DNA of 26,102 nt from a virus. Lineage: Duplodnaviria; Heunggongvirae; Uroviricota; Caudoviricetes. Position 1 is the first letter of the stretch. Each line of letters starts with the position of its first letter. Below are positions 6,354 to 26,102 of the stretch, piece after piece. The notes under the pieces are model-generated. The model saw only the letters and a list, made by a program, of their open reading frames with translations, was not told the DNA's origin and ran no database searches. Position numbers and translations under genes: made by a program. The DNA is taken from the IMG/VR virus record IMGVR_UViG_2529292998_000006. The stretch is one strand, 5' to 3'.

Positions 6354-6379
6354 GTTGTGGATGGGGTAGTGAGCGGTGG

Positions 6380-6841: not shown

Positions 6842-6873
6842 ACATAGAGTTTATTTGTTTTACCAATATTATC

Positions 6874-6918
6874 AAAGATAGTCTGGCTATTGATCTTTAA
6901 AATTAGCGGGGCTAATAT
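6874..6918 (+). promoter_or_regulatory. Putative rightward promoter with overlapping inverted repeat (candidate operator)
   Basis: TTGATC (6890-6895), 17 nt, TAATAT (6913-6918), upstream of the Cro-like ATG at 6949. Inverted repeat AAAGAT...ATCTTT (6874-6879 and 6893-6898) overlaps the -35. Confidence 0.45.
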
Positions 6919-6948
6919 TTGCTCGAGGCATAACGTAGAAGGTTGGCT

Positions 6949-7633: not shown

Positions 7634-7704
7634 CTCGCAATATTCATACCGGATCACTTCCGGCAATTTGTGAGTAAAAAGATTCGGTATCAGAAGAGGT
7701 GAGT

Positions 7705-8745: not shown

Positions 8746-9199
8746 GCAGCAAATCCGACAGGTCTGCCGCCAGTGCATGGACCGCTGCCGGGCGGGTGAA
8801 ACATGGCCTCCGGACCTGGCTGAGTTTGTGGCGCTGATTTCAGAAAGCGGGGCCAATCCATTTGGCCTGACGGTGGATGCTGTGATGGAGGAGTACCGCC
8901 GCTGGCGTGATGAGTCCTGGCGATATGACGGAAGCGACAAATATCCGTGGCCTCAGCCTGTGCTGTACCACATCTGCCTCGAAATGCGTACCAGAGGGAT
9001 TGAGCGCCAGATGACGCAGGGTGAGTTAAAACGACTTGCGGAACGGCAACTGACGAAATGGGCAAAGCATGTTGGTAACGGGATGAGTGTTCCGCCAGTG
9101 CGACGACAACTGGAAGGGGCGAAACACCCGCAAGGGCCAACGCCAATTGAACGGCTGAAACAGGAATACGAACGCCGGAAGGCAGCTGGTTTTATTTGA
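8657..9199 (+). CDS. Replication protein P-like helicase loader; start uncertain (8534, 8657 or 8738)
   Basis: Segment LWIAQIGAMTEQQIRQVCRQ...PPDLAEFVAL...KYPWPQPVLYHICLEM...MTQGELKRLAERQL is colinear with recalled lambda P. It overlaps the 3' end of the initiator gene. An ATG at 8534 has a good SD (AAGGGGG) but would give a 212-nt overlap. Confidence 0.6.
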   Translation: MGEVYSNRWTQKNGAAPSKLWIAQIGAMTEQQIRQVCRQCMDRCRAGETWPPDLAEFVALISESGANPFGLTVDAVMEEYRRWRDESWRYDGSDKYPWPQPVLYHICLEMRTRGIERQMTQGELKRLAERQLTKWAKHVGNGMSVPPVRRQLEGAKHPQGPTPIERLKQEYERRKAAGFI

Positions 9200-9232
9200 A
9201 TCTGAGAAACGATTTTGTCGGAGGAAATTTTA

Positions 9233-10003
9233 ATGGAAACCGTATTTGACGCACTGAAAGCAATGGGAAAAGCCACATCGGTAGAACTGGCCGCGCGACT
9301 TGATATCAGTCGTGAAGAGGTTCTCAACGAGCTGTGGGAACTCAAAAGAAATGGCGTCGTTGATAAAACTGGTCACACCTGGTTTCTGGCTGGCGAAGGT
9401 GAATCCCGGGTAACCGAAGAGCGGCCAGTAAAATCTGAAGCACAGGATATGCTGACCGGGGAGGTCGAACAAAAAGTTACCGCAGACATGATGATTGAGT
9501 TTATCGGTCAGGATGGTGCTAAAACGTGTGAGGAACTGGCGGGTAAGTTCGGCGTCAGTACTCGCAAGGTTGCCTCCACGCTGGCGGTGGTAACCGCAAC
9601 GGGGCGGCTGGCACGCGTTAATCAGAACGATAAATTTCGTTACTGCATGCCGGGCGATAATTTACCAGCAGAGCCGAAAGCCGCGCTGGTAACGGAAAGT
9701 GATGGTAAGGCCTTTCCTCAGCCAGCAGGTGCTGCGTTACCAGTCCGGGAAGCCGCAACACAGGAAGAAATTAAAACAGAAACTGTGGCGGACATTGTGC
9801 AGCCGTTGCCATCGTTTACCGAAACGCAAGCAGATGAGCTGATTTTTCCGTCCCTTCGCAGGGCAAACCTGGCGCTGCGCAGGGCGAAAAGTGATGTTCA
9901 GAAGTGGGAGCGAGTCTGCGCCGCGCTGCGGGAGCTGAACAAGCACCGGGATATTGTTCGACAGATTACTGATTCTTCCCGCCGTGTTGTATCGGAAAAG
10001 TGA
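9233..10003 (+). CDS. Hypothetical protein with two winged-helix-like segments (256 aa)
   Basis: ATG at 9233 with GGAGG upstream. The track ORF starts at TTG 9215. HTH-like [27 protein letters not shown] and a second [19 protein letters not shown]. Confidence 0.55.
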
Positions 10004-10018
10004 TTGCCGGAGGCGCTT

Positions 10019-10444
10019 ATGGCAAAAGTATTTACACAAGAAGAGCGGGAAAAAATTAAAGGGCAGGTTGTTGAACTTGTACGTCTGAGCGGTCGCGAGA
10101 CGTTGCGGCAACTGGAAGCCAAGACAGGTGCGACAAGATATCTGATGAGTGTTCTCGCCAGAGAGCTGGTTGCCAGTGGCGATGTATACAACTCTGGTTA
10201 CGGGTTATTCCCGTCTGAACAGGCGCGTAAGGACTGGCAAAATGCTCGCAAAAAACTCTCAAGGGCAAAGGTGAAGAAACCTGCAGTGGTTGATCCGGAC
10301 CTTATCTGGTCGTTACCAGACGGCGAAATACGCCGCTACGACAGGCGCCTGAATATAATCTGTCGCGAGTGCCGGAAGAGCGAAGCTATGCAGCGTGTAC
10401 TGGCATTTTATCAAGGAAATGTTAGGTATTTTAGACGTTACTAG
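10019..10444 (+). CDS. Hypothetical protein (141 aa)
   Basis: ATG at 10019 with GGAGG 5 nt upstream, immediately after the previous stop. The track ORF starts at TTG 10004. Basic C-terminal half. Confidence 0.5.
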   Translation: MAKVFTQEEREKIKGQVVELVRLSGRETLRQLEAKTGATRYLMSVLARELVASGDVYNSGYGLFPSEQARKDWQNARKKLSRAKVKKPAVVDPDLIWSLPDGEIRRYDRRLNIICRECRKSEAMQRVLAFYQGNVRYFRRY

Positions 10445-10597
10445 ATTAAAGAGCATTAGTTCAGATGTGAATTGACATTTTCATGGCGCAGGGTAGAGCC
10501 AGCGTGGTTGTCCGCTTTGCGTCAAAACCAGATATTACCAGATTTAGACATATATTCCCGATAGCCCTGCTCTGATGCTACACTCTGTGCTATTTTC

Positions 10598-11284
10598 ATG
10601 ACCCCAATAAAAATATTTATGACTATTGCTGATTTCAAACGGCCTAAATTGGAGCTCCCAAACGGGGCAAACAAACTACTACTGCACTCTTGCTGTGCTC
10701 CATGTTCCGGTGAAGTGATGGAGGCGCTTCAGGCCTCGGGAATCGACTACACCATCTTTTTCTACAACCCGAACATTCATCCTCAGAAAGAGTATTTAAT
10801 TCGTAAGGATGAAAATATTCGCTTTGCTGAACAACACGGCGTGCCGTTTATCGATGCTGATTACGACACCGACAACTGGTTTGAACGTGCCAAAGGAATG
10901 GAATGGGAGCCTGAGAGGGGGATCCGTTGTACCATGTGTTTTGACATGCGTTTTGAGCGGACAGCGTTGTACGCTGCTGAAAATGGTTTCAGTGTGATCA
11001 GCAGTTCACTGGGCATTTCACGCTGGAAAAATATGCAGCAGGTTAACGAGTGTGGGCGGCGAGCTGTTGCGCATTATCCGGGTATGGTGTACTGGGATTA
11101 TAACTGGCGCAAGCAGGGCGGCTCGTCCCGTATGATTGAAATCAGCAAGCGCGAAAAATTCTATCAGCAGGAATATTGTGGCTGTGTGTATTCTCTGCGC
11201 GATACCAATCTACACCGCAAATCTCAGGGACGCCCTCTTATCAAAATTGGCCAACTCCACTACGGAAAAGAAGAGAAGGAGTGA
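10598..11284 (+). CDS. QueH-like (DUF208) putative epoxyqueuosine reductase (228 aa)
   Basis: Motifs [24 protein letters not shown] and [11 protein letters not shown] match what I recall as conserved QueH signatures. Stand-alone gene between the replication module and hokD. Confidence 0.65.
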
Positions 11285-11521
11285 TTTTATGGATCACCTT
11301 TCTGATTGATTTCATATTGGCGAGGTGACGTGAGTTAAGTAGAATGGCTGCGGGTGCTTGAGGCTATCTGTCTCAGGCATGAACACTGAAAGGCAGATAG
11401 AGAAAAGCCCCAGTTAACATTTCGCGTCCTGCAAGACGCTTAACATTAATCTGAGGCCCAATCTATGTCTCACAAATGTAGGTTAGCCTCTTACGTGCCG
11501 AAAGGCAAGGGGAAGCAGGCT

Positions 11522-11677
11522 ATGAAGCAGCAAAAGGCGATGTTAATCGCCCTGATCGTCATCTGTTTAACCGTCATAGTGACGGCACTGGTAACGAGGA
11601 AAGACCTCTGCGAGGTACGAATCCGAACCGGCCAGACGGAGGTCGCTGTCTTCACAGCTTACGAACCTGAGGAGTAA
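11522..11677 (+). CDS. hokD: Hok-family membrane toxin HokD/RelF (51 aa)
   Basis: MKQQKAMLIALIVICLTVIVTALVTRKDLCEVRIRTGQTEVAVFTAYEPEE. The track ORF from 11465 extends it in frame, which I take to be an artefact. Confidence 0.85.
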   Translation: MKQQKAMLIALIVICLTVIVTALVTRKDLCEVRIRTGQTEVAVFTAYEPEE

Positions 11678-11745
11678 GAGACCCGGCGGGGGAGAAATCC
11701 CTCGCCACCTCTGATGTGGCAGGCATCCTCAACGCACCCGCACTT

Positions 11746-11776
11746 AACCCGCTTCGGCGGGTTTTTGTTTTTATTT
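11746..11776 (+). terminator. Intrinsic terminator after hokD
   Basis: Hairpin AACCCGC-TTCG-GCGGGTT followed by TTTTGTTTTTATTTT. Confidence 0.7.
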
Positions 11777-11893
11777 TCAACGCGTTTGAAGTTCTGGACG
11801 GTGCCGGAATAGAATCAAAAATACTTAAGTAGCGCGCAGGGATAAGAGGGATGGTCCCTTAAAGGGGAGAGCTAATTATCCGGAAGGATTCTG

Positions 11894-12145
11894 ATGATGA
11901 ACATCGAAGAACTGCGTAAAATTTTTTGTGAAGATGGCCTCTATGCTGTGTGCGTTGAAAATGGAAATCTTGTTAGTCATTACCGCATTATGTGTTTGCG
12001 AAAGAATGGGGCTGCGTTAATTAATTTTGTGGATGCTCGGGTCACGGACGGATTTATCTTGCGCGAAGGTGAGTTTGTCACTTCATTACAGGCATTGAAA
12101 GAGATCGGAATAAAAGCTGGCTTTTCTGCTTTTTCAGGAGAATAA
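11894..12145 (+). CDS. rem: Rem-like protein (83 aa)
   Basis: 83-aa ORF with GGAAGGA upstream, between hokD and ydfU as in K-12 Qin. Named by size and synteny from memory. Confidence 0.55.
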   Translation: MMNIEELRKIFCEDGLYAVCVENGNLVSHYRIMCLRKNGAALINFVDARVTDGFILREGEFVTSLQALKEIGIKAGFSAFSGE

Positions 12146-12211
12146 ACTCATCTACAATCTTGCGCGGGGCTGAACTCCCGCTGAGTAACACCGTGCCACC
12201 GGAGAAAACCG

Positions 12212-12490
12212 ATGGCACGCAACGCAAAATATTACAATTCTGATAATTCGCCCGTTCTTGCCTGCACGCACGGGCGGTATTCTCACGCATTCAAGTCTGA
12301 ATGGTTCCAGCACCCTCCATGCACTGCAGAACAGGCCGAATGGCTGATTCATTCTTACCGCAGGCGCGGGTTCGAGGTTAAGAAAGCTCTCAGTCTCGAC
12401 TATCGGCACTGGATAATCTCTGTCAGGCTGCCTTATTCCGAACGCCCACCACGTGCGTCCCGCACTTTCCAGCAACGGATCTGGAGGTAA
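12212..12490 (+). CDS. Hypothetical small protein (92 aa)
   Basis: ATG with GGAG 7 nt upstream. Its stop TAA (12488-12490) directly abuts the GTG start of ydfU. Confidence 0.4.
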   Translation: MARNAKYYNSDNSPVLACTHGRYSHAFKSEWFQHPPCTAEQAEWLIHSYRRRGFEVKKALSLDYRHWIISVRLPYSERPPRASRTFQQRIWR

Positions 12491-12491
12491 C

Positions 12492-13541
12492 GTGCGGGTA
12501 TTACTTAGACCTGTTCTGGTGCCTGAGCTTGGGCTGGTGGTCCTTAAGCCGGGCCGTGAATCCATACAGATATTTCATAATCCTCGAGTGCTGGTGGAAC
12601 CGGAACCAAAAAGCATGCGTAATCTGCCATCCGGAGTCGTTCCTGCCGTTCGCCAGCCGCTGGCGGAAGACAAAACATTGCTGCCGTTTTTTAGTAACGA
12701 ACGGGTGATTCGTGCTGCTGGCGGCGTTGGCGCATTGTCCGACTGGCTATTACGTCATGTTACATCCTGCCAGTGGCCTAATGGCGATTACCATCACACT
12801 GAAACAGTCATTCACCGTTATGGTACCGGCGCAATGGTGTTGTGCTGGCACTGCGACAACCAACTGCGTGACCAGACATCGGAATCACTGGAGCTGCTTG
12901 CTCAACAAAATCTGACAGCATGGGTGATTGACGTCATCCGTCACGCAATAAGCGGTACGCAGGAGCGGGAATTATCTTTGGCTGAATTATCCTGGTGGGC
13001 GGTCTGCAATCAGGTGGTGGATGCACTACCTGAGGCTGTATCGCGTCGTTCGCTGGGATTACCAGCGGAAAAAATCTGCTCGGTGTACCGCGAAAGCGAC
13101 ATCGTACCGGGAGAGCAGACCGCCACCAGCATATTGAAACAACGCACAAAAAATCTTGCACCGTTGCCTTACGCCCACCAGCAACAAAAATCACCACAGG
13201 AAAAGACGGTGGTAAGCATCACCGTTGATCCAGAGTCTCCGGAATCTTTCATGAAGCTGCCTAAACGTCGCCGCTGGGTTAAGGAGAAATACACACGTTG
13301 GGTTAAGACACAGCCGTGTGCTTGCTGCGGTATGCCAGCCGACGATCCGCATCATCTGATTGGTCACGGGCAGGGCGGAATGGGAACAAAAGCACATGAT
13401 CTCTTTGTGTTGCCTTTGTGCAGAAAGCATCACAACGAGCTGCATACGGATACAGTGGCATTTGAAGATAAGTATGGCTCCCAACTGGAGCTGATATTTC
13501 GTTTTATCGATCGCGCGCTGGCAATTGGCGTACTGGCGTAA
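12492..13541 (+). CDS. ydfU: YdfU-like protein with C-terminal HNH-like/DUF968 domain (349 aa)
   Basis: GTG at 12492 with GGAGG upstream gives 349 aa. C-terminus CACCGMPADDPHHLIGHGQGG...CRKHHNELH has a Cys/His-rich HNH-like signature. Confidence 0.65.
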   Translation: MRVLLRPVLVPELGLVVLKPGRESIQIFHNPRVLVEPEPKSMRNLPSGVVPAVRQPLAEDKTLLPFFSNERVIRAAGGVGALSDWLLRHVTSCQWPNGDYHHTETVIHRYGTGAMVLCWHCDNQLRDQTSESLELLAQQNLTAWVIDVIRHAISGTQERELSLAELSWWAVCNQVVDALPEAVSRRSLGLPAEKICSVYRESDIVPGEQTATSILKQRTKNLAPLPYAHQQQKSPQEKTVVSITVDPESPESFMKLPKRRRWVKEKYTRWVKTQPCACCGMPADDPHHLIGHGQGGMGTKAHDLFVLPLCRKHHNELHTDTVAFEDKYGSQLELIFRFIDRALAIGVLA

Positions 13542-13554
13542 GTGGAGAACGAGC

Positions 13555-14307
13555 ATGAACCTTGAAGCCTTACCAAAATATTACTCCCCAAAATCTCCAA
13601 AATTGAGCGATGACGCTCCAGCGACAGGCACCGGTTGTTTAACAATTACGGATGTAATGGCAGCGCAGGGGATGGTGCAGTCGAAAGCACCACTTGGGTT
13701 GGCCTTATTTCTGGCAAAAGTTGGTGTTCAGGACCCTCAGTTTGCGATTGAAGGCCTGCTAAATTACGCGATGGCACTGGATAACCCGACATTGAACAAA
13801 TTGAGTGAAGAAATCCGGTTACAGATTATTCCTTACCTCGTGAGTTTTGCCTTTGCTGATTACTCCAGGTCTGCGGCAAGTAAGGCTCGCTGTGAGCATT
13901 GTTCAGGTACGGGATTTTATAATGTATTGCGCGAAGTGGTGAAACACTACAGACGCGGGGAATCTGTAATCAAGGAAGAATGGGTGAAGGAACTATGTCA
14001 GCATTGCCATGGTAAGGGCGAAGCCAGCACAGCGTGCAGAGGGTGTAAGGGTAAAGGGATTGTTCTGGATGAAAAAAGAACCCGGTTTCATGGCGTACCG
14101 GTATATAAGATTTGTGGGCGTTGTAATGGAAACCGGTTTAGTCGTTTACCGACCACGCTGGCACGACGTCATGTCCAGAAGCTGGTACCAGACCTGACCG
14201 ATTATCAGTGGTATAAGGGGTATGCGGACGTCATTGGTAAACTGGTAACAAAGTGCTGGCAGGAAGAAGCATACGCGGAAGCGCAATTGAGGAAGGTGAC
14301 GAGATAA
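13555..14307 (+). CDS. quuQ: Late-gene antiterminator Q (250 aa)
   Basis: ATG at 13555 gives 250 aa. The track ORF starts at TTG 13525. Cys-rich zinc-binding region CEHCSGTG...CQHCHGKG...CRGCKGKG...CGRCNG. Followed by a promoter and terminator. Confidence 0.8.
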   Translation: MNLEALPKYYSPKSPKLSDDAPATGTGCLTITDVMAAQGMVQSKAPLGLALFLAKVGVQDPQFAIEGLLNYAMALDNPTLNKLSEEIRLQIIPYLVSFAFADYSRSAASKARCEHCSGTGFYNVLREVVKHYRRGESVIKEEWVKELCQHCHGKGEASTACRGCKGKGIVLDEKRTRFHGVPVYKICGRCNGNRFSRLPTTLARRHVQKLVPDLTDYQWYKGYADVIGKLVTKCWQEEAYAEAQLRKVTR

Positions 14308-14338
14308 ATGATTTTTGCTGAAGATGGCGACATGATGT

Positions 14339-14367
14339 TTGCATTTTTCAAAAAATATGGATAAAAT
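14339..14367 (+). promoter_or_regulatory. PR'-like late promoter (the qut site is expected to overlap it)
   Basis: TTGCAT (14339-14344), 17 nt, TAAAAT (14362-14367), about 30 nt past the Q stop. Confidence 0.55.
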
Positions 14368-14412
14368 TTTTTCAACGATGGGCTTTGTATACCCGACGTT
14401 AAGAAAAAGTAG

Positions 14413-14442
14413 AAAACCCGCTGATGAGCGGGTTTTGTGCTT
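14413..14442 (+). terminator. tR'-like intrinsic terminator
   Basis: Hairpin CCCGCT-GATG-AGCGGG followed by TTTTGTGCTTT, about 50 nt downstream of the putative -10. Confidence 0.6.
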
Positions 14443-14728
14443 TAAATGGGGCAATGGTAATGTTGAATCTCATCCCGGGACTCATGTCTGTTAACTTATT
14501 ATTTAGCTGGTGACTTGGTTATTTGCCTGATGTTTAAAATGTTTTCTTCCAGTACAATGTCCCTAAACACAATGAGTCTGCTTATTATATTATTAGCAGA
14601 GCTATTACGGCCAAAGTACAGCATAAGCTTTTAAAGCCAATCAACCAGTCATCAAGACAGACGGGGTTATTCATAAAAACTCTCCATGTGTGATCCGATG
14701 GGGCCTGAAATTAAAGCTTTAATATAGC

Positions 14729-14941
14729 TCATGAAAGGTAAACATTGGCAGCTGAAGGGCCACGCAGACCATTTATCCGGCAAAATTCCACGCGTAATCC
14801 GGTGGTAATTTCTTCTGCATCGCGGAGATTGAGCGCTGAAACATGAAGCTGGACATCGATACGACCATCGGATGGGGTGATAAGACCCTTGCCGCTTTTG
14901 CCGTCAAAGGTTTTGACAATTCCTGTCATTTTACGGGACAA
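14729..14941 (-). CDS. cspF: Cold-shock-domain protein CspF (70 aa)
   Basis: [27 protein letters not shown]...[10 protein letters not shown]. The first codon is TTG here; the first ATG is at 14929 (MTGIVK...). Confidence 0.85.
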
Positions 14942-15241
14942 AAAAATTCCTTAATACTGATAACTTGGCGCACTATACACACGTTCCTGAAGAAAGCTAT
15001 AGTTTTTTGATGGGGTTGAAGATGGCTGGATGTCTAAAATAAACATTGCTTCATATGTTCAACTATGCGTTAATGATTGCGTCGGTTTGAAGAACAGACG
15101 ATATACGAAGTAGTTTACTAAAGCAGTTCTCATTTCAGGTGTTATTCACTTATTCCTTCTTTGAGTCTCTCCAATTAAGTACGAAGTCGTTTCTGTTATG
15201 CAAACCATTTATGCCGAAAGGCTCAAGTTAAGGAATGTAGA

Positions 15242-15457
15242 ATGTCAAATAAAATGACTGGTTTAGTAAAATGGTTTAACGCTGATAAAGGTTTCGGCTT
15301 TATTTCTCCTGTTGATGGTAGTAAAGATGTGTTTGTGCATTTTTCTGCGATTCAGAATGATAATTATCGAACCTTATTTGAAGGTCAAAAGGTTACCTTC
15401 TCTATAGAGAGTGGTGCTAAAGGTCCTGCAGCAGCAAATGTCATCATTACTGATTAA
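15242..15457 (+). CDS. cspB: Cold-shock protein CspB (71 aa)
   Basis: [71 protein letters not shown]. Divergent from cspF with a long 5' leader. Confidence 0.9.
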
Positions 15458-15739
15458 AATTCATCGCTCGTCTGTATACGATAACGAAGAAGGCTGATGC
15501 CTGAGTAGAGATACGGACAGAGTAGTGAATATTGGATCTCTTTAATAAAAAGTAAGGAGGTCCAATACATGAAACAATGGCTAGCATATTTGGCAAAATC
15601 TTAATCAGGAAAAGTATGCTAACCATTGTGGTGAAGTGCAGGTTTGCTGCATGAATAGTTTTACAGCAGAAGCTAACTGCTGGCATGGCAAAACAAAGTG
15701 CGTAAGTGGATGACTCCCACAAAAAGCACCACAATCTCA

Positions 15740-15766
15740 AACCCGCTCAGGCGGGTTTTTTATTAT
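15740..15766 (+). terminator. Intrinsic terminator downstream of cspB
   Basis: Hairpin AACCCGC-TCAG-GCGGGTT followed by TTTTTATTAT. Confidence 0.7.
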
Positions 15767-15820
15767 CTGCTTTAAATATATTATTAAAATATAAAAAATA
15801 CTTGTTACTAATAAAATCAA

Positions 15821-15991
15821 TCAGGCTACAGCTTTAAGATTTGTCTGGAATACTTTGTTGCAATGAGGGCAGATCAAAAGGGCACCTTTTTGTACTCTTG
15901 AAAAACTGTGTTCTGACTCTTGGGTGCAGTTTGGGCAGGAACATTTAACGAGATAATTACGGCGTGATTTTGAGTTTTTACGTTCTGACAT
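15821..15991 (-). CDS. ynfU: Small zinc-ribbon protein, YnfU-like (56 aa)
   Basis: ATG at 15991 with AGGA upstream gives MSERKNSKSRRNYLVKCSCPNCTQESEHSFSRVQKGALLICPHCNKVFQTNLKAVA, with two CxxC pairs. Antisense to the late operon between cspB and the holin. Confidence 0.5.
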   Translation of the reverse strand: MSERKNSKSRRNYLVKCSCPNCTQESEHSFSRVQKGALLICPHCNKVFQTNLKAVA

Positions 15992-16210
15992 AGGCTTTTC
16001 CTGTATAAATGGCCGTATACAGTACACTAAATATGAAAACATTTCTCGTATTATTATTTTATATATGACTTTCTTTCAAAATAATTACCCACATTTTTAA
16101 TGTGTATGTTTTTTTAGCGCCGTTGAGAACAACGTGTGCTGTCAAAACTACCCCGTAGACTCCGATCTTTTCAAACATATTGCACCATCCGTGTACATCG
16201 GGGTGAGGAT

Positions 16211-16426
16211 ATGAAATCAATGGATAAGTTAACAACAGGTGTTGCCTATGGCACATCGGCGGGTAATGCTGGTTTCTGGGCATTGCAGTTACTCGATAAA
16301 GTAACTCCGTCACAGTGGGCTGCAATCGGTGTGCTGGGTAGCCTGGTTTTTGGCCTGCTGACGTATCTGACAAATCTTTATTTCAAGATTAAAGAAGACA
16401 GGCGTAAGGCTGCGAGAGGAGAGTAA
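16211..16426 (+). CDS. essQ: Holin (71 aa)
   Basis: ATG at 16211 with GGGTGAGGA upstream. [30 protein letters not shown]..., hydrophobic core, charged C-terminus. Confidence 0.85.
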
Positions 16427-16430
16427 TCCA

Positions 16431-16738
16431 ATGACTCAAGACTATGAACTGGTTGTGAAAGGAGTCCGTAATTTTGAGAATAAAGTTACGGTAACTGTAG
16501 CCTTACAGGACAAAGAACGCTTTGACGGTGAAATTTTTGACCTGGATGTCGCCATGGACCGTGTTGAAGGAGCTGCGCTGGAGTTTTATGAGGCAGCAGC
16601 CAGAAGGAGCGTCCGGCAAGTCTTCCTGGAAGTAGCAGAAAAATTGTCAGAAAAAGTTGAGTCTTATCTGCAGCATCAGTACTCCTTTAAGATTGAAAAT
16701 CCTGCCAATAAGCACGAGCGTCCTCATCATAAATATCT

Positions 16739-16742
<4 letters not shown>
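16431..16742 (+). CDS. ydfR: YdfR-like protein (103 aa)
   Basis: 103-aa ORF between holin and lysozyme. Its stop overlaps the lysozyme ATG (ATGA). Confidence 0.7.
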
Positions 16743-17766
<1,024 letters not shown>

Positions 17767-18128
17767 GGTAATATTAAATCGGAACATTTACATCGCGGAA
17801 TGTAAAATTTAAATAAAAAGGACTCTTCCATGAGCCAAAATTCCTGAAATCTTAAGGGTAAGATAAAAGGTCTTAATCAGAATGACACGTTTTATTAATA
17901 AATAAAGCTATTCTTTCATTGCTGTGTTTTTCTTTACAAAAGTAATCCTTGCTATGGGTGGTTAATCATGCGTTAATGGTGTTCTGGTTTGTTACAAATT
18001 TATCTGAAGCAGTCATTGTTATAATTTTATTATTTGTACCTCTTGAGATTTCCTTGTTGGTTTTTCTCTCTGATATTTTTTTTCGGACCATTCTGCCCAA
18101 GGGCTAATTTCTTCAAAAGGTAATAATT

Positions 18129-18341
18129 ATGTCTAACAAAATGACTGGTTTAGTGAAATGGTTTAACCCTGAAAAAGGTTTTGGTTTCATCACGCCGAAA
18201 GATGGCAGCAAAGATGTGTTTGTCCATTTCTCAGCAATTCAGAGCAACGATTTCAAAACATTAACTGAGAATCAGGAAGTTGAATTTGGTATTGAGAACG
18301 GACCTAAAGGTCCTGCCGCTGTTCATGTAGTGGCGCTTTGA
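18129..18341 (+). CDS. cspI: Cold-shock protein CspI (70 aa)
   Basis: [70 protein letters not shown], with a long AT-rich 5' leader. Confidence 0.9.
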
Positions 18342-18544
18342 GGTAGACAATATTACAAACCATATTCACTTTAGATGCCCGTGTTGTCATGGTTCCCAGT
18401 ATAGAACATCATCTTTTGATGTTTCTGACATGAATCCTTTCGGGGCAAAATGTATCTTTTGTAAATCAATGATGATTACATTTGATAATATTTCACAATA
18501 CTTAAATGCCAGCCGTCTGTCGTTGGATTTAAAAAAGTGAAAAT

Positions 18545-18570
18545 GAAGGCTCCTTCGGGAGCTTTTTTGC
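18545..18570 (+). terminator. Intrinsic terminator after cspI
   Basis: Hairpin GAAGGCTCC-TTCG-GGAGCTT followed by TTTTTGC. Confidence 0.65.
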
Positions 18571-18612
18571 TTGGTGTCTATTCGATGGATACTCACATAC
18601 TACGGTAACATC

Positions 18613-18843
18613 ATGAAAAAAATCATAGTTTTTTTTAACTCTGAACCAGCAGTGGTAGTGCCAGCGATGACTGGAGTTAACACCATCATGCGTGAATATC
18701 CAAATGGCGAAAAAACACACCTTACTGTAATGGCCGCAGGGTTTCCATCTCTGACCGGAGATCATAAAGTCATTTATGTAGCCGCGGATCGACATGTTAC
18801 TTCAGAAGAAATTCTGGAAGCAGCAATAAGGCTCTTGAGTTGA
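18613..18843 (+). CDS. Hypothetical small protein (76 aa), possibly YnfN-like
   Basis: ATG at 18613; the track ORF starts at TTG 18571. Weak SD. Position matches ynfN in K-12 Qin but I cannot confirm the sequence. Confidence 0.35.
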   Translation: MKKIIVFFNSEPAVVVPAMTGVNTIMREYPNGEKTHLTVMAAGFPSLTGDHKVIYVAADRHVTSEEILEAAIRLLS

Positions 18844-19014
18844 TTTGATGCTATTGCATTGATAATTCAGGAAAATTCTCTTTGTCTGTTTGTGTAAAAT
18901 TTAGACTATCGTATGTTGATTATTGCGATGTTTCATCTTATCTTTTACACGTTTGCACCATATAATCGACTTACTGTGTAACTGGAAAGTCATAACAGAC
19001 TAAAAGAGGAAATG

Positions 19015-19188
19015 ATGAATATTGAAAACTTAAAAACAAAAGCAGAAGCAGATATTTCTGAATATATAACAAAAAAAATTATTGAACTTAAGAAAAAGAC
19101 CGGGAAAGAAGTTACCAGTATTCAGTTTACCGCACGGGAAAAAATGACGGGTCTTGAAAGCTATGATGTCAAGATTAATTTAATCTGA
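19015..19188 (+). CDS. gnsB: GnsB-like protein (57 aa)
   Basis: Hand translation gives MNIENLKTKAEADISEYITKKIIELKKKTGKEVTSIQFTAREKMTGLESYDVKINLI, preceded by AGAGGA. Under 60 aa, so absent from the ORF track. Confidence 0.7.
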   Translation: MNIENLKTKAEADISEYITKKIIELKKKTGKEVTSIQFTAREKMTGLESYDVKINLI

Positions 19189-19339
19189 TGTATTCAATAA
19201 TAAAATTTATCCATAAACCTCGTTTTTACGGGGTTTTGTTATATTTGAATGGTTCCGAATATCTAAATCACAATTGTTGATGGTTTTTATTAAACCAATG
19301 CAGTCCGGCTCAGGAGTGAGAGAAGCCGGACGTTATGGT

Positions 19340-19750
19340 TTAGCGTGGTAAGATCTGTGTAGTTTTCTGGATGCTTTCAGTAAATAGTAATGAATTATCA
19401 AAGGTATAGTAATATCTTTTTTGTTCGTGGATATTTGTAACCCACCGAAAAACTCCTGCTTTAGCAAGGTTTCTTCTGTATTCCTGAAATGTGATCTCTC
19501 TGGATTTCAGCTTATTAGAGGTCGTTTCTATAAGATGCCTATCCTTTGAAAATTTGACAGACACAATGTTTTTTAGGCCCTTTAATAACACTGTATTATC
19601 ATTTTTTAATACAATATGAACATTCTCTGTGGCTAAATAGTAAATGTAATGTGAGACATTGTGACGTTTTAGCTCAGAATAAAACCATTGATAGTTTAAA
19701 TCGTTTCGAACTTTATCAAATATTTGTTTAAAAATGACTACCTGATCCAT
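19340..19750 (-). CDS. ydfO: YdfO-like protein (136 aa)
   Basis: ATG at 19750 with GGAAGG 7 nt upstream; the track start at 19765 lacks an SD. Size and position match ydfO. Confidence 0.6.
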
Positions 19751-19807
19751 AGATAAACCTTCCATGTGATATGAGGGGGCGTAGTCTGCACGATTATCTA
19801 AATTGCT

Positions 19808-20041
19808 TCAATCTGGTCTGACCTGTTTTCTGAGCAATTCAGTAATGTCACTCTTTTCTTTGTTTGCTTCAGAAGAAACTCTTTTTTCTGAGCACAGTCT
19901 CCGGCGGCAGGCTTCAATGACCCAGGCTGAGAAATTCCCGGACCCTTTTTGCTCAAGAGCGATGTTAATTTGTTCAATCATTTGGTTAGGAAAGCGGATG
20001 TTGCGGGTTGTTGTTCTGCGGGTTCTGTTCTTCGTTGACAT
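19808..20041 (-). CDS. Hypothetical small basic protein, possibly ribbon-helix-helix (77 aa)
   Basis: RNIRF (beta-strand-like), PNQMIEQINIALEQ and NFSAWVIEACRRRL (helix-like). Lies just left of cos. Confidence 0.4.
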   Translation of the reverse strand: MSTKNRTRRTTTRNIRFPNQMIEQINIALEQKGSGNFSAWVIEACRRRLCSEKRVSSEANKEKSDITELLRKQVRPD

Positions 20042-20199
20042 GAGGTTGCCCCGTATTCAGTGTCGCTGATTTGTATTGTCTGAAGTTGTTTTTACGTTAA
20101 GTTGATGCAGATCAATTAATACGATACCTGCGTCATAATTGATTATTTGACGTGGTTTGATGGCCTCCACGCACGTTGTGATATGTAGATGATAATCAT

Positions 20200-20430
20200 T
20201 ATCACTTTACGGGTCCTTTCCGGTGATCCGACAGGTTACGGGGCGGCGACCTCGCGGGTTTTCGCTATTTATGAAAATTTTCCGGTTTAAGGTGTTTCCG
20301 TTCTTCTTCGTCGTAACTTAATGTTTTTATTTAAAATACCCCCTGAAAAGAAAGGAAACGACAGGTGCTGAAAGCGGGCTTTTTGGCCTTTGTCGTTTCC
20401 TTTCTCTGTTTTTGTCCGTGGAATGAACAA
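20200..20430 (+). other. Lambda-type cohesive-end site: cosQ, cosN (GGGCGGCGACCT at 20241-20252), cosB
   Basis: CGGGTCCTTTCCGGTGATCCGACAGGTTACG + GGGCGGCGACCT + CGCGGGTTTTCGCTATTTATGAAAATTTTCCGGTTTAAGG... matches the recalled lambda right-end/left-end junction almost base for base, followed by the Nu1 start. Confidence 0.85.
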
Positions 20431-20687
20431 TGGAAGTCAACAAAAAGCAGCTGGCTGACATTTTCGGTGCGAGTATCCGTACCATTCAGAACTGGCAGGA
20501 ACAGGGAATGCCCGTTCTGCGAGGCGGTGGCAAGGGTAATGAGGTGCTTTATGATTCTGCCGCCGTCATAAAATGGTATGCCGAAAGGGATGCTGAAATT
20601 GAGAACGAAAAGCTGCGCCAGGAAGTTGAAGAACTGCGGCAGGCCAGCGAGACAGATCTCCAGCCACCCGCGCTACGGCATGGGTAA
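20430..20687 (+). pseudogene. nohA: Truncated terminase small subunit Nu1 (nohA-like; lambda-like for about 78 aa, then out of homology)
   Basis: MEVNKKQLADIFGASIRTIQNWQEQGMPVLRGGGKGNEVLYDSAAVIKWYAERDAEIENEKLRQEVEELRQASE matches recalled lambda Nu1. Diverges after DLQP at about 20665, with a stop at 20687. Confidence 0.8.
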
Positions 20688-21945
20688 ACGTCTTGGTGCG
20701 GCAGATGTGGATAAATGGGCGCTGTATGTCATCGGCCAGTGTTGCGACCAGTCGGTGCCGGACGGTTTTGGCGGCACGGAGCCGCGCATCACCTGTAATG
20801 CCTGGCTGACCACGCAGCGTAAGGCGTGGGATGTGCTCAGTGATTTCTGCTCGGCGATGCGCTGTATGCCGGTATGGAACGGGCAGACGCTGACGTTCGT
20901 GCAGGACCGACCATCAGATAAGGTGTGGACCTATAACCGCAGTAATGTGGTGATGCCGGATGATGGCGCGCCGTTCCGCTACAGCTTCAGCGCCCTGAAG
21001 GACCGCCATAATGCCGTTGAGGTGAACTGGATTGACCCGGATAACGGCTGGGAGACGGCGACAGAGCTTGTGGAGGACACGCAGGCCATTGCCCGTTACG
21101 GTCGTAACGTCACGAAGATGGATGCCTTTGGCTGTACCAGGCGGGGGCAGGCGCACCGAGCCGGGCTGTGGCTGATTAAAACGGAACTGCTGGAAACGCA
21201 GACCGTGGACTTCAGCGTGGGTGCCGAAGGGCTTCGCCATGTACCAGGTGATGTCATTGAAATCTGTGATGATGACTATGCGGGGATCAGCATCGGCGGG
21301 CGCGTGCTGGCGGTGAACAGCCAGACGCGGACACTGACGCTCGACCGTGAAATCACGCTGCCATCCTCCGGCACCACGCTGATAAGCCTGGTTGACGGAC
21401 AGGGGAATCCGGTCAGCGTGGAGGTCCAGTCCGTCACCGACGGCGTGAAGGTGAAAGTGAGCCGGGTTCCTGACGGCGTTGCAGAATACAGCGTGTGGGG
21501 GCTGAAGCTGCCGACGCTGCGCCAGCGCCTGTTCCGCTGCGTGAGTATCCGTGAGAACGATGACGGTACGTATGCCATCACTGCCGTGCAGCATGTGCCG
21601 GAGAAAGAAGCCATCGTGGATAACGGGGCGCACTTTGACGGTGACCAGAGCGGCACGGTGAATGGTGTCACGCCGCCAGCAGTTCAGCACCTGACCGCAG
21701 AAGTCACCGCAGACAGCGGGGAATACCAGGTGCTGGCGCGCTGGGACACGCCGAAGGTGGTGAAGGGGGTGAGCTTTATGCTTCGCCTGACCGTGGCAGC
21801 GGACGACGGCAGTGAGCGGTTGGTCAGCACGGCCCGGACGACGGAAACCACATATCGCTTCACGCAGCTGGCGCTGGGAAATTACAGGCTGACAGTCCGG
21901 GCGGTAAATGCATGGGGACAGCAGGTGCACATACCCATTCGATGA
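20668..21945 (+). pseudogene. Internal fragment of tail tip/host-specificity protein J, fused to the Nu1 remnant
   Basis: GMGKRLGAADVDKWALYVIGQ...[12 protein letters not shown] is colinear with the middle of lambda J as I recall it. No start of its own. The frame ends 6 codons past the homology. Confidence 0.8.
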
Positions 21946-22220
21946 CATTTGTTTCAGGTGGTTCCAGTGGTGCTCCGGGAAGTGGATCACCTGATTATTC
22001 TAAATACAGTGTTAACACTTCTTCTGCAGGCGCTCATACGCACTCTGTATCGGGTACTGCTGCAAGCGCAGGTGCACACGCACATACTGTCGGTATTGGT
22101 GCTCATACGCACTCCGTTGCGATTGGTTCACATGGACATACCATCACCGTTAACGCTGCTGGTAACGCGGAAAACACCGTCAAAAACATCGCATTTAACT
22201 ATATTGTGAGGCTTGCGTAA
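21912..22220 (+). pseudogene. stfQ: C-terminal remnant of side tail fibre protein (Stf)
   Basis: Repeated GAHTHS motifs and the ending [11 protein letters not shown] typical of the lambda Stf C-terminus. Different frame from the J fragment. Confidence 0.7.
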
Positions 22221-22795
22221 TGGCATTCAGAATGAGTGAACAACCACGGACCATAAAAATTTATAATCTGCTGGCCGGAACTAATGAATTTATTGGTGAA
22301 GGTGACGCATATATTCCGCCTCATACAGGTCTGCCAGCAAACAGTACCGATATTGCACCGCCAGATATTCCGGCAGGCTTCGTGGCTGTTTTCAACAGTG
22401 ATGAGGCATCGTGGCATCTCGTTGAAGATCATCGGGGTAAAACGGTTTATGACGTGGCTTCCGGCGACGCGTTATTTATTTCTGAACTCGGTCCGTTACC
22501 GGAAAATGTTACCTGGTTATCGCCGGGAGGGGAATATCAGAAGTGGAACGGCACAGCCTGGGTGAAGGATACGGAAGCAGAAAAACTGTTCCGGATCCGG
22601 GAGGCGGAAGAAACAAAAAACAGCCTGATGCAGATAGCCAGTGAGCATATAGCGCCGCTTCAGGATGCTGTGGATCTGGAGATCGCAACGGAGGAAGAAA
22701 CCTTGTTGCTGGAAGCCTGGAAAAAGTATCGGGTGTTGCTGAACCGTGTTGATACATCAACTGCACCGGATATTGAATGGCCAGCACTGCCGTAG
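22220..22795 (+). CDS. tfaQ: Tail fibre assembly protein (191 aa)
   Basis: ATG overlaps the stf stop (TAATG). 191-aa Tfa-like protein located next to a Pin invertase. Confidence 0.85.
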
Positions 22796-22892
22796 GGTAA
22801 AACATATAAATTCTATAATTAGATGTATCTCTCCATTTACGGCAAGGAAGGGGGCTTGGAAGACGTAAAGCATCTCACACCGAGATTATTTT

Positions 22893-23483
22893 TTATATGT
22901 CAGGTGTCTGAAGTTTTGCTTTGGCTCTTAAAATGGTTTGCCGCGAGGTTTTGAATTCCCGGGCAATGGCACTTATACTTACACCTGACTTAATTCGTTC
23001 GAATACCACCTGTTTCTGTTCTTCATTTAACACAGGTGGTCGACCAAAACGTTTCCCTGCGCCGCGGGCTCTTACTATCCCGGAATGAGTGCGTTCAAGT
23101 AAAAGGTCTCGTTCAAATTCAGCGACTGCTGAAATTACGTGCATCATCATTTTTCCTGTTGGACTGGTCAGGTCAATGCCCCGCAATGCTAAGCAATGCA
23201 CTCTGATACCTGTTTCGGTCAGTTGTTCCACTGTTTTCCTGATATCCATTGCATTACAACCAAGGCGATCCAGTTTTGTCACAATCAATTGATCACCACA
23301 TTTCAGGCGAGCAAGCAACCGGTTAAAACCAGGACGCTCACTGGTTGCTGCTGAGCCGCTAATGTGTTCTTCGATTATTTGCTGAGGTTTGATTTTAAAA
23401 CCTGCACTTTCGATTTCCCGGCGTTGATTTTCGGTGGTCTGATCCAGCGTTGATATCCGACAGTAAGCAAAAATTCGAGACAT
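22893..23483 (-). CDS. pinQ: Serine recombinase, DNA invertase Pin/Gin/Hin family (196 aa)
   Basis: N-terminal catalytic region [16 protein letters not shown] with the active-site Ser, resolvase core, C-terminal HTH ([17 protein letters not shown]). Confidence 0.9.
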
Positions 23484-23706
23484 AGTGAGACTCTATACGA
23501 AATTGGTGTTCATATCATAATGCATCTCAGAAAATAATTTTGATTATTTTTGTGCATATTTGTATGTACACGTTCGAAAATAAACGAATGCGTATGCAAC
23601 CCCGTAACTTTGGTGAGACCCAAAATCGATTTTGTGAAAAATGGCTTTAACTCGGTTTGTTTTTCGAGTTCCGGGCGGACTCAAGGAAGAAGAATAGTGT
23701 TGCGTG

Positions 23707-24033
23707 TTATTTTAACCAGATTTCAAGTTGTTTGGTCGTGGAAAAGTGGAGCAAAATGTTGTTAAAGTGGAAAAATGATAAAAAAGTAAGTTTATTATAT
23801 TGCATTTTACCATTTAAATTTTGGTTGTCTTTAAGAACTGATATCGCTGTTTGTAATAATTCTTTGTTATCCAGCCATGATTTTTTCTTTATGTTTCCTT
23901 CAATGTAATCAAGCAATGTTCTGGTATTGATAGGTCTTCCCTGTTTTGCTACTTCCACTACAGCATCCCCTAGGATAATTCTGACTTCAGGAAGCTGCGC
24001 AGGGAACCACTTTAGGGTGTCTTTTGATTTCAT
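23707..24033 (-). CDS. ydfK: YdfK/YnaE-like protein (108 aa from the ATG at 24033)
   Basis: ATG with AAGGA 8 nt upstream. Lies between pin and the host junction, as ydfK does in K-12. The length differs from what I recall for ydfK, so identity is uncertain. Confidence 0.45.
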   Translation of the reverse strand: MKSKDTLKWFPAQLPEVRIILGDAVVEVAKQGRPINTRTLLDYIEGNIKKKSWLDNKELLQTAISVLKDNQNLNGKMQYNKLTFLSFFHFNNILLHFSTTKQLEIWLK

Positions 24034-24818
24034 GAATATATTCCTTAAAATATTATTGATTTTCATTGCGATATTGTATGTCTGATTCAGGATATGTTGA
24101 CTTATACATCGGTTTTGTCTGGGTTATTGGATATGCCAATCCCTAATTTTATTAGAGCATGACTAAAAATGCTGAATATGATAAGGAGCGAAGTGATTAT
24201 CAGTATGCTGTTCATATAGCCTCGAATTAATAATGTGTTATATATGATATAGTTGACAATTTTTATCCTGGGTGTTCTTAAAGTTCGTAGATAAACATTG
24301 TCGTTTCAGGTATACAGGAATGCTAACAGATGGCGGCAAAAATCAGGCGGTTTATGGCGCAAGCTGAAGTGGCAACTGCAAACTATCTTATGCAGAGACT
24401 CTACACGGATTGGGTTTAAAAGTATACATAGATAACAGTTTTTATCTGAAGAAGAAAAATATCAAGGTGATATAGCCTATATGCCTTTGATGTGGAGGAA
24501 TGAATGTGATGGGAGTGATGTATCTGAATAGTTGAAAAACCGCAGACACGCCTTATGCAAGAACGTGCTGCGGTTGGCTGGTAAATTTTTCGATAGTGCG
24601 AGTATTGAATGATTTCCAGCCGTTATTGATTTTACGCGTAACTCCATGAAAAAACTACTTATCTGTTGAGGAGTTTTTTTGGGGCATATATGGGACAGAA
24701 ATGGGCCCCAGATAGACACTGAGATCGAACTTAGGATGCTTTTTAAAAAATGCAACTATCTGAAAAAACCTAGAAAACGCCAAGGAAACCACAGGATGGG
24801 AAAAAACACCTGTGAATT

Positions 24819-26102
24819 ATGGATTTCCAGTTATATTCGCTCGGCGCAGCGTTAGTGTTTCATGAAATATTTTTTCCTGAATCATCAACGGCAATGGCGT
24901 TAATTCTGGCAATGGGAACCTACGGTGCAGGTTATGTGGCGCGTATTGTCGGAGCATTTATTTTCGGCAAAATGGGCGACAGAATAGGGCGTAAAAAAGT
25001 GCTCTTTATTACCATCACCATGATGGGGATCTGTACCACCTTAATTGGTGTGTTACCGACCTATGCACAGATTGGTGTTTTTGCACCCATCTTGCTGGTG
25101 ACGTTGCGTATTATTCAGGGGTTGGGTGCAGGTGCGGAAATTTCCGGTGCCGGTACGATGCTGGCGGAATATGCGCCAAAAGGTAAGCGCGGAATTATCT
25201 CCTCATTTGTGGCTATGGGAACTAACTGCGGAACCTTGAGCGCAACGGCAATCTGGGCCTTTATGTTCTTCATTCTCAGTAAAGAGGAACTGCTGGCGTG
25301 GGGATGGCGTATACCGTTCCTGGCGAGTGTTGTCGTGATGGTCTTTGCTATCTGGTTGCGTATGAATCTGAAAGAAAGCCCGGTCTTTGAGAAGGTTAAC
25401 GACAGTAACCAACCGACAGCAAAACCTGCACCTGCTGGTAGCATGTTCCAGAGCAAATCCTTCTGGCTGGCAACAGGGCTGCGTTTTGGTCAGGCGGGTA
25501 ACTCCGGGTTAATTCAGACTTTCCTTGCAGGCTATTTAGTGCAGACGTTATTGTTTAACAAAGCAATTCCAACAGATGCATTGATGATCAGTTCGATTCT
25601 CGGCTTTATGACCATTCCGTTCCTTGGTTGGTTATCCGATAAAATTGGTCGCCGGATCCCGTATATTATTATGAATACCTCCGCGATTGTGCTGGCATGG
25701 CCAATGCTTTCTATCATTGTAGATAAAAGCTATGCCCCGAGCACCATTATGGTTGCACTGATTGTGATTCATAACTGTGCGGTGCTGGGATTATTTGCTC
25801 TGGAAAACATTACCATGGCAGAAATGTTTGGCTGTAAAAACCGCTTTACCCGGATGGCTATTTCTAAAGAAATTGGTGGTCTTATCGCTTCCGGTTTTGG
25901 TCCTATCCTGGCGGGTATTTTCTGCACCATGACGGAATCCTGGTATCCGATCGCCATTATGATCATGGCATATTCAGTGATTGGTTTAATCTCTGCGCTG
26001 AAAATGCCAGAGGTGAAAGACCGTGATTTAAGTGCGCTGGAAGACGCTGCGGAAGATCAACCGCGTGTTGTAAGAGCTGCGCAACCTTCCAGAAGTCTGT
26101 AA
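24819..26102 (+). pseudogene. ydfJ: 5'-truncated MFS (MHS-family-like) transporter, ydfJ-like; host gene interrupted by the prophage
   Basis: 12 TM-like hydrophobic segments. It starts inside the conserved TM1 motif (DFQLYSLG...FFPES, lacking the preceding W/Y residues), and an in-frame TGA lies 2 codons upstream of the ATG. Confidence 0.65.

Follow-up and report, generated by a model that had tools for sequence, protein, structure and literature searches.

The cos site and its subsites

The window, which is the whole 26,102-nt stretch of the virus record IMGVR_UViG_2529292998_000006, carries a lambda-type cos site followed to the right by stumps of the terminase small subunit gene Nu1, the tail-tip gene J, and the side tail fiber gene stf, and then by an intact tail fiber assembly gene, tfaQ. 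Segments were mapped by blastn to the lambda reference NC_001416, with E-values that were all 0 or about 1e-125. Positions 19879-20666 are collinear with the joined lambda ends. The right-end segment at 19879..20240 on the plus strand (lambda 48141-48502) is 98.3% identical over 362 nt and ends at the top-strand nick position 20240/20241; immediately left of the nick, 241 nt are identical to lambda without exception (241/241). On the other side, 20241-20666 corresponds to lambda 1-427 with 8 mismatches and 1 gap.

The phage 434 record OL657226 supplied the annotation by which the cos subsites were placed; for the roles of cosQ, cosN, I2, and cosB we rely on published lambda biology (PMC4669245; PMC4856287). 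The packaging termination subsite cosQ (heptamer GGGTCCT) lies upstream at 20211..20217 (+), 30 to 24 nt left of the nick, with the same sequence and offset as in lambda and phage 434 (OL657226). Within the partly symmetric cosN, the cohesive end GGGCGGCGACCT at 20241..20252 (+) equals lambda bases 1-12 and its flanks are identical too; nicks are predicted at 20240/20241 on the top strand and 20252/20253 on the bottom strand. This is the only exact copy of the 12-mer in the window. A copy with one mismatch at 11054-11065 was considered as a second cos and rejected as a chance occurrence, since it lies in a stretch matching VR50 queH and has no cosQ or cosB context. The I2 spacer, an AT-rich bent segment between cosN and cosB (20258..20290, +; lambda bp 18-50), is identical to lambda with unchanged spacing and no indel; its role and the need for correct cosN-cosB spacing come from lambda work (PMC4856287). 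In cosB (20290..20406, +), the IHF site I1 (20314-20326), the inverted R2 (20348-20363), and R1 (20391-20406) are identical to both lambda and 434, while R3 (20290-20305) is one base off lambda (C53T at 20293) and identical to 434. The substitution hits a core base, and the same base is found in phage 434. Eighteen records from viable phages carry the 55-nt stretch from R3 to I1 without a single difference, and the R2/R1 inverted repeat was also recovered by an independent repeat search.

When compared with lambda bases 1-190 the window shows five differences, and five are likewise found over 20185-20421, the equivalent of the lambda interval 48446-182 that constitutes a sufficient cos (PMC4856287); in each comparison all five (5/5) carry the 434 base. 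No mutation absent from a viable phage occurs in the cos subsites. Their spacing and orientation also agree with lambda and 434, and the Nu1 ATG is located at +190 in both the window and 434. The initial annotation had described an intact, almost lambda-identical cos followed by Nu1, J, and Stf deletion scars, and direct alignment to lambda supports this description, R3, I1, R2, and R1 being those of lambda or 434. Disruption at the nicking positions, which it had raised as a concern, is not seen: these positions and every defined subsite are undisrupted. Rfam gave no match in the cos/scar region.

Stumps of Nu1, J, and Stf and their junctions

The truncated Nu1 ORF (20430..20687, +) would specify an 85-aa product in which codons 1-79 are authentic (to 20666), followed by six out-of-frame codons from J DNA and a stop. 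The stump aligns from residue 1 to lambda Nu1 and K-12 NohA. Pfam PF07471 is matched at positions 1-81 of 164 only (E 3e-48), whereas a full-length Nu1 would comprise an N-terminal wHTH and a C-terminal half for oligomerization and TerL binding. At junction 1 (20664..20666), Nu1 codon 79 meets J codon 282 at a 3-nt microhomology, CCA, by which the two blastn segments overlap. The junction amounts to a loss of lambda 428-16346 (about 15.9 kb), i.e., the rest of Nu1, A, all head genes, the tail genes Z to I, and the J N-terminus; this and the other deletion sizes are in lambda coordinates only, and the exact gene content of the ancestor may differ.

The J stump (20664..21925, +; lambda 16347-17608) is an internal fragment of 420 codons (residues 282-701 of 1132), with no authentic start and with the receptor-binding C-terminus absent. 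It is 93.2% (nt) and 97.1% (aa) identical to lambda J and 98.1% identical at the nt level to J of phage mEp460, and it matches PF13550 and PF24421. A SNP patch at 21399-21597 and 21923, private to the window, sides with lambda J and not with the other Qin copies. Since the patch agrees with lambda J, gene conversion as well as deletion appears to have shaped the region.

Junction 2 (21924..21925) joins J codon 701/702 to the side tail fiber at a 2-nt microhomology, GG: J homology ends at 21925 and fiber homology, similar to the gp37-like fiber of phage AV116, starts at 21924. In lambda coordinates about 4 kb is lost here, including the J C-terminus, lom, and most of stf. The Stf stump (21924..22220, +) consists of the C-terminal 98 codons with GAHTHS-type His repeats and matches PF03335. 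It shows 81% aa identity to the C-terminus of the AV116 gp37-like fiber and 73.8% to lambda orf-314, and over its last 68 aa the identity to K-12 StfQ is 95.6%. The first 30 or so residues are unlike lambda or K-12 StfQ and resemble a T-even-type gp37 C-terminus. The end of stf and tfa are recovered by blastn at 22071-22785 (lambda 21824-22538). Between codon 79 of Nu1 and the 98 retained Stf codons, nothing is left but a 1.26-kb internal piece of J. The three stumps are pseudogenes, and terminase, head, and tail cannot be made.

These alignments sharpen several details of the initial annotation. The truncation of Nu1 and the subsequent run into J in another frame stand, and the number of retained codons is 79 and not about 78. 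Breakpoints had been placed at about 20664-20670 and about 21925-21935; the first mapped junction falls within its interval, and the second straddles the lower edge of its interval. The claim of three reading frames does not hold, as there are two phases only: Nu1 (ATG 20430) and Stf (register 21912) share one and J (register 20578) is in the other. It had also been stated that the deletions left cos and tfa, and every cos subsite is indeed present and tfaQ (22220..22795, +; 191 aa; Pfam PF02413) is intact; at the aa level its product is 96.3% identical to Tfa of lambda and 95.3% to TfaQ of K-12.

Near-identical lambdoid prophages, with a median of 5 matching places per E. coli genome, are a classic cause of misassembly, so that base-calling frame errors or a chimeric assembly of several such prophages might be blamed for the arrangement; one continuous gene broken by a sequencing error had been considered as well. 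Of 5426 complete E. coli genomes, 26 contain the identical 55-mer spanning junction 1, and 91 the one spanning junction 2. The recurrence in these independent genomes means that the junctions are not sequencing errors, and no single-base correction joins three pieces that are separated in lambda by about 15.9 kb and by about 4 kb. The probability of an artefact is therefore negligible in our estimate.

The intact serine invertase gene pinQ (22893..23483, minus strand; 196 aa; Pfam Resolvase and HTH_7), so named in matching genomes, belongs to the neighboring context and is not part of the scar. In a search for a local PinQ crossover site, neither the e14 P-segment repeat CCTTCTCCCAAACCAA nor a gix-like core gave a usable match, a result consistent with the action of PinQ in trans on e14 (PMC12529663).

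Qin relatives and deletion history

By its flanking genes, the prophage is classified as Qin-type with its right end in ydfJ. The Qin gene order gnsB, ydfO, ynfO, cos, tfaQ, pinQ, ydfK, ynfT, ydfJ is present in matching genomes and in K-12, and alignment to K-12 and BUCT2930, together with annotation, finds the Qin right end, with ydfK-pinQ-tfaQ, then ynfO-ydfO-gnsB-cspI-lysis-cspB/F-Q, ending in ydfJ. The element as seen measures about 24.8 kb, from the window start (int gene; the left end is not visible) to the right end as defined in K-12. Lambda qin hybrids reportedly carry Qin late DNA. A passage of PMC5811629 cites Espion et al. (1983) for the Qin cryptic prophage of K-12. K-12 Qin shares with the window the ydfJ junction and the genes from hokD through the lysis cassette, cspI, gnsB, ydfO, ynfO, cos, and then tfaQ, pinQ, and ydfK; identity is 99.85% over window positions 11508-20666. 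In the cosB-Nu1 part, 11 of 14 differences from K-12 fall within 328 nt, starting 41 nt right of the cohesive end. A K-12-type early region (intQ, dicA/dicC, relBE, flxA) was not found at 1-11507, where matches to K-12, at 94-96%, are confined to about 2.4 kb around ydfA-C, dicB, and dicF. Strain VR50 carries, beside ompW, a prophage whose early region matches the entire 1-11507 stretch at 99.7% identity.

The scars differ between the two prophages. K-12 Qin has lambda 1-719 (nohA) fused to a 320-aa StfQ without J, whereas the window has lambda 1-427 joined to J and then to Stf', and no nohA/stfQ fusion of the K-12 type. Because K-12 keeps Stf sequence that is absent in the window lineage, neither form derives from the other, and the two scars are independent. 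Alignment to K-12 Qin had been suggested for finding the breakpoints, and it proved unusable for this purpose since K-12 has another scar; the lambda alignment supplied the exact positions.

Exactly the window architecture is found in BUCT2930 and about 25 other genomes at 99.6% identity, and PGAP calls the same three pseudogenes there. RefSeq labels them "terminase small subunit, missing C-terminus" (Nu1), "host specificity protein J, missing N- and C-terminus" (J), and "tail fiber protein, missing N-terminus" (Stf). The structure is ordinary and already known, as the public genome annotation records the same stumps, and it has little import beyond correct annotation. Four other architectures were found besides that of the window, three with the J/Stf junction and the fourth being K-12, whose type is carried by roughly 365 genomes. 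P13-6 has lambda 1-956 joined to 13434-13575 and 16534-17608 and thereby keeps A' and L'; ML35 has 1-703 joined to 17302-17608; FDAARGOS_1337 has 1-699 joined to 16135-17608, with more Nu1 and more J than the window. These three have only the J/Stf junction in common with the window, and their left junctions differ.

The comparison suggests an order of events. The J/Stf junction, common to at least four left-side architectures, formed first and the Nu1/J junction later. Since FDAARGOS_1337 combines lambda 1-699 and 16135-17608 with the same J/Stf junction, the Nu1/J junction of the window probably arose in two steps via an FDAARGOS_1337-like intermediate, a large deletion being followed by a trimming deletion of about 480 bp; the FDAARGOS_1337 architecture is a plausible direct precursor of the one seen here. 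At least two large deletions had been proposed for this locus; that number is borne out as a minimum, and FDAARGOS_1337 points to the further trimming step.

The same region could also be read as acquisition, in which a K-12-like Nu1/Stf scar gained the J fragment and a foreign fiber tip by prophage recombination. The gene-conversion-like SNP patch in the J stump, the first 30 Stf-stump residues, which are of another allele type than lambda and K-12 StfQ, and the divergence patch against K-12 in cosB-Nu1 all lend it some color. The order of Nu1, J, and Stf is, however, collinear with lambda, and the extra collinear remnants in P13-6 (A', L') and FDAARGOS_1337 (Nu1, J) are predicted by nested deletion and not by insertion; the mutual non-derivation of the K-12 and window forms is a further argument against a K-12-like starting point. 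We consider acquisition very improbable. Our favored reading, held with high confidence, is that the region is the eroded late end (packaging, head, tail, and fiber genes) of a Qin-type lambdoid cryptic prophage, which kept a complete cos of lambda/434 packaging specificity and suffered its losses by successive illegitimate (microhomology) deletions. It offers a worked example of a lambdoid prophage shedding its virion genes by nested microhomology deletions with the packaging site intact, and the locus has at least five scar variants, of which K-12 Qin is just one.

Possible activity and retention of cos

In contrast to the cos of lambda and 434, the cos in the window is chromosomal and lacks a cognate terminase. 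With Nu1 cut after codon 79 and gene A absent, it could act only in trans, and as judged from its subsites it should still serve as a substrate for a terminase of lambda or 434 specificity. We found no experimental test of Qin cos function in the literature searched. TerS would bind R3, R2, and R1, IHF would occupy I1, and the nicks at 20240/20241 and 20252/20253 would be made by TerL. Packaging would then proceed to the right, taking in Nu1', J', stf', tfaQ, and pinQ before entering ydfJ and host DNA. Without another cos, oriented alike, 38-51 kb downstream, the yield would chiefly be dead-end products with a single cos, plus a double-strand end prone to recombination.

It might be asked whether cos and the 85-aa Nu1 DNA-binding stub have been kept by selection, either as a terminase decoy or as a hitch-hiking packaging signal. 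All five architectures (5/5) retain cos and at least Nu1 codons 1-79, including the winged-helix DNA-binding domain, and the freedom of the cos subsites from mutations unseen in viable phage fits such a role; by inference, a lambda head would have room for a dimer of the element of about 24.8 kb. Five architectures descending from one ancestral locus are, however, not independent trials, and chance alone would be expected to leave about 0.7 kb beside a scar. A scan of 19700-23000 for promoters and terminators came out at chance level, with no sign of stub expression, and the element carries nothing like the Rpp or redirecting proteins of cos-type PICIs. Its early region differs in origin from that of K-12 Qin, and its attachment sites lie outside the window. 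A cos-type PICI is a small island that lacks lysis genes and has its own int, regulator, and primase-replicase together with a terminase-redirecting protein and a cos matching that of its helper; by annotation only, the window shares just the helper-matching cos and carries a lambdoid Q-lysis cassette and early genes. Domestication is thus unlikely, and we would give it only a slim chance. If it were true, a decoy would bind cosB or capture incoming lambda/434-type terminase, leading to abortive chromosome cutting or to packaging interference; as a packaging signal, cos would let a helper mobilize the remnant of about 25 kb as a dimer, or host genes to the right (ydfJ, ydfI, rspR, dcp). On that view, recombination with visiting phages, initiated at cos, would have left the cluster of K-12 differences that begins 41 nt right of the cohesive end.

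For the eroded Qin-type late end that we favor, the chromosomal cos remains a possible site of cutting and recombination during growth of phages with lambda or 434 specificity, which may be relevant to phage-prophage gene exchange and to cosmid or lambda work in such hosts. The DLP12 cos-nohD region of K-12 is likewise a chromosomal lambda-like cos with a Nu1 homologue. It occupies another locus and has 3.3 kb of lambda-like DNA including part of A. The DLP12 cos region recombines with infecting lambda, and the junctions are clustered at cos (PMC3945230).

Nu1, J and fibre remnants in a Qin-type prophage

When region 19900-22600 was read, its ORFs listed and the sequence then aligned to phage lambda (NC_001416), positions 19879-20240 matched lambda 48141-48502 (the final 241 bases identical) and 20241-20666 matched lambda 1-427 with 8 mismatches and one 1-nt gap. 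Lambda-type chromosome ends are joined at 19879-20666; a cos site is therefore present, running into the first 79 codons of the terminase small subunit gene Nu1. Further right, 20664-21925 corresponds to an internal part of J (lambda 16347-17608, 93.2% nt identity), and 22071-22785 aligns with the end of the side tail fibre gene stf and tfa (lambda 21824-22538). The initial annotation, which had described a cos site followed by Nu1, J and Stf scars, is confirmed in its observation by these alignments and by subsite placement via phage 434; its interpretation of the scars as deletions is supported, with minor corrections.

At Junction 1, the Nu1/J breakpoint (...GATCTCCAGCCA|CCCGCGCTACGG...), the Nu1 sequence ends through CCA and the J sequence begins with CCA, thus placing the breakpoint within 20664-20666. 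In lambda coordinates, 428-16346 (15.9 kb) has been lost: the remainder of Nu1, A, every head gene, tail genes Z to I and J codons 1-281. Read from its ATG at 20430, Nu1 runs on past the junction through six foreign codons to a stop at 20685-20687, giving an 85-aa ORF of which residues 1-79 are genuine Nu1 and which matches positions 1-81 of the 164-position Pfam Nu1 profile. The J stump comprises residues 282-701 of the 1132-residue J (97.1% aa identity) and is closest to J of phage mEp460 (98.1% nt).

At Junction 2, the J/Stf breakpoint (...GGGGACAGCAGG|TGCACATACC...), lambda J homology stops at 21925 and homology to a gp37-like fibre gene of the T-even-type phage AV116 starts at 21924, the breakpoint being a GG common to both sides. 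The loss amounts to about 4 kb (the C-terminus of J, lom and the bulk of stf), a rough figure given that the fibre allele is not that of lambda. The last 68 residues of the 98-codon fibre stump are 95.6% identical to K-12 StfQ, and the first 30 are of AV116 type, matching neither lambda nor K-12. The remnants had been assigned to three reading frames; Nu1 and the fibre stump in fact share one phase (both 20430 and 21912 are multiples of 3), with J alone shifted; even so, both junctions are out of frame.

Judged from the flanking genes (gnsB, ydfO and ynfO on the left; tfaQ, pinQ, ydfK, ynfT and ydfJ on the right) and the alignments, the element is a Qin-type cryptic prophage. It shows 99.85% identity to K-12 MG1655 over 11508-20666 and 99.87% to BUCT2930 over 11508-25809. 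The NCBI annotation of BUCT2930 carries exactly the same three truncated features, labeled by the pipeline as "terminase small subunit, missing C-terminus", "host specificity protein J, missing N- and C-terminus" and "tail fiber protein, missing N-terminus". Among 5426 complete E. coli genomes, the 55-mer spanning Nu1/J occurs in 26 and that spanning J/Stf in 91, which excludes an assembly or base-calling artefact, the sequencing-error alternative raised initially, and means that the structure has been publicly recorded before. It is an unremarkable relic, annotated earlier, of a well-known cryptic prophage. Rfam matches to DicF sRNA at 4546-4597 (-), the sok antitoxin RNA of hokD at 11352-11527 (+) and cspA-type thermoregulator leaders at 15081-15473 (+) (cspB) and 17983-18368 (+) (cspI) are expected Qin cargo.

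The cos site and its possible fate

Subsite coordinates were transferred from the phage 434 record (GenBank OL657226), since positions in the window and in 434 run in register, the Nu1 ATG being at +190 in both. They comprise cosQ (GGGTCCT, 20211-20217), the cohesive end GGGCGGCGACCT (20241-20252), I2 (20258-20290), R3 (20290-20305), I1 (20314-20326), R2 (20348-20363) and R1 (20391-20406); a repeat finder independently recovered a perfect 15-nt R2/R1 inverted repeat. In lambda, cosB together with IHF positions the terminase, cosN is nicked, I2 sets spacing and bend, cosQ is required for termination, and a 238-bp fragment (48446-182) contains all cos subsites (work of the Feiss laboratory: PMC4669245; PMC4856287). 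Lambda has the same sequence as the window in cosQ, cosN, I2, I1, R2 and R1. Five differences from it fall within bases 1-190 (positions 53, 73, 102 and 150, and a 1-nt deletion near 136), and 434 agrees with the window at each. Position 53, in the R3 core (CGTTTCC to TGTTTCC), is the sole difference within a defined subsite. A 55-nt query centred on it, forcing every megablast seed to include that base, matched 24 phage-collection records, 18 of them at 100%, including 434, 2H10, 1H12, PhiR29_1 and PhiR70_1. Every base of the defined subsites is thus also known from some viable phage, and we infer that this copy could be cut and packaged.

The gene set itself is non-working, with three pseudogenes and without TerL or any head or tail gene. 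The cos site would act as a passive substrate, recognised by a terminase of lambda/434 specificity from another phage, and packaging would proceed rightward, first through the remaining 4.6 kb or so of the prophage and from there into host DNA. To terminate, it would require a downstream cosQ-cosN. No second cos was found within the window, so a double-strand break with abortive or single-cos packaging is expected rather than the formation of transducing particles. A precedent is provided by the single-cos "doc" particles to which unexcised lambda prophages give rise. A 12-mer at 11054-11065 (+), GGGCGGCGAGCT, one mismatch from the cohesive end, lies in a stretch matching VR50 queH, with neither cosQ nor cosB around it, and is most probably a chance match.

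Scar variants and recombination patches

The initial annotation had proposed lambda and K-12 Qin for breakpoint mapping, but K-12 does not carry these scars: lambda 1-719 (nohA) is joined directly to a 320-residue StfQ and J is absent. K-12 keeps fibre sequence absent from the window and the window keeps J sequence absent from K-12; each retains what the other lost, so the two arose independently from a more complete ancestor. Among the roughly 30 typed genomes of the 91 with the J/Stf junction, three more architectures share it but have different left junctions: P13-6 (L002 6092-8255; lambda 1-956 ^ 13434-13575 (L) ^ 16534-17608; in 5 genomes), ML35 (L010 8030-9028; lambda 1-703 ^ 17302-17608) and FDAARGOS_1337 (L011 1103-3267; lambda 1-699 ^ 16135-17608). 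FDAARGOS_1337 contains all of the window's sequence here plus about 480 bp, so the window's Nu1/J junction is most simply read as a second, small deletion that erased an older junction. Neither of these two can descend from P13-6, nor P13-6 from either of them. The J/Stf deletion would be earliest, with several independent deletions later eroding the left side; microhomology of 2-10 nt was found at every junction mapped. It is possible, but very improbable, that cos or the 85-aa DNA-binding stub of Nu1 has been domesticated; the sole support is that both are kept in all five architectures.

The J stump differs at nine positions from other Qin copies (BUCT2930, P13-6), clustered at 21399-21597 plus 21923, and seven of these restore the lambda J base, probably through gene conversion by another J copy of that genome. 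Window and K-12 Qin differ at 14 positions over 9.2 kb, 11 of which lie within 328 nt (20293-20620), from R3 into Nu1, beginning 41 nt right of the cohesive end; only three occur in the preceding 8.8 kb. This cluster resembles a tract of recombination or conversion that has cos as its border, and the converted lineage could be either. Both patches look as if converted by other lambdoid copies. When lambda infects K-12 it recombines with the cryptic prophages there, and its junctions with DLP12 concentrate at cos (PMC3945230), a pattern that the cos-adjacent patch fits.

Flanking genes and the early half

Downstream, tfaQ (191 aa) and pinQ (22893-23483 (-), 196 aa) are intact. According to a 2025 paper, PinQ acts in trans to invert the P segment of e14 and so blocks T2 adsorption (PMC12529663), consistent with an intact pinQ in a window in which no e14-type P-segment crossover repeat was found. 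A full-length match to RF02111 (IS009 candidate sRNA) lies inside tfaQ at 22563-22761 (+), at 221 bits (gathering score 117).

Window 1-11507 is unlike K-12 Qin and shares 99.7% identity with the early region of the VR50 prophage beside ompW, meeting the Qin-like part at hokD/sok (~11508). This junction was found at >96% identity in no complete genome of the collection; it may be a naturally occurring form of Qin, or the outcome of two prophages having recombined or of an inversion between them, the left flank lying beyond the window. The early half encodes an integrase (1-1131 (-)), excisionase, exonuclease, ydfD, dicB, ydfC/B/A, a repressor, ydaS/ydaT, O/P-like replication genes, DUF1627, DUF977 and queH, and its genes appear uninterrupted.
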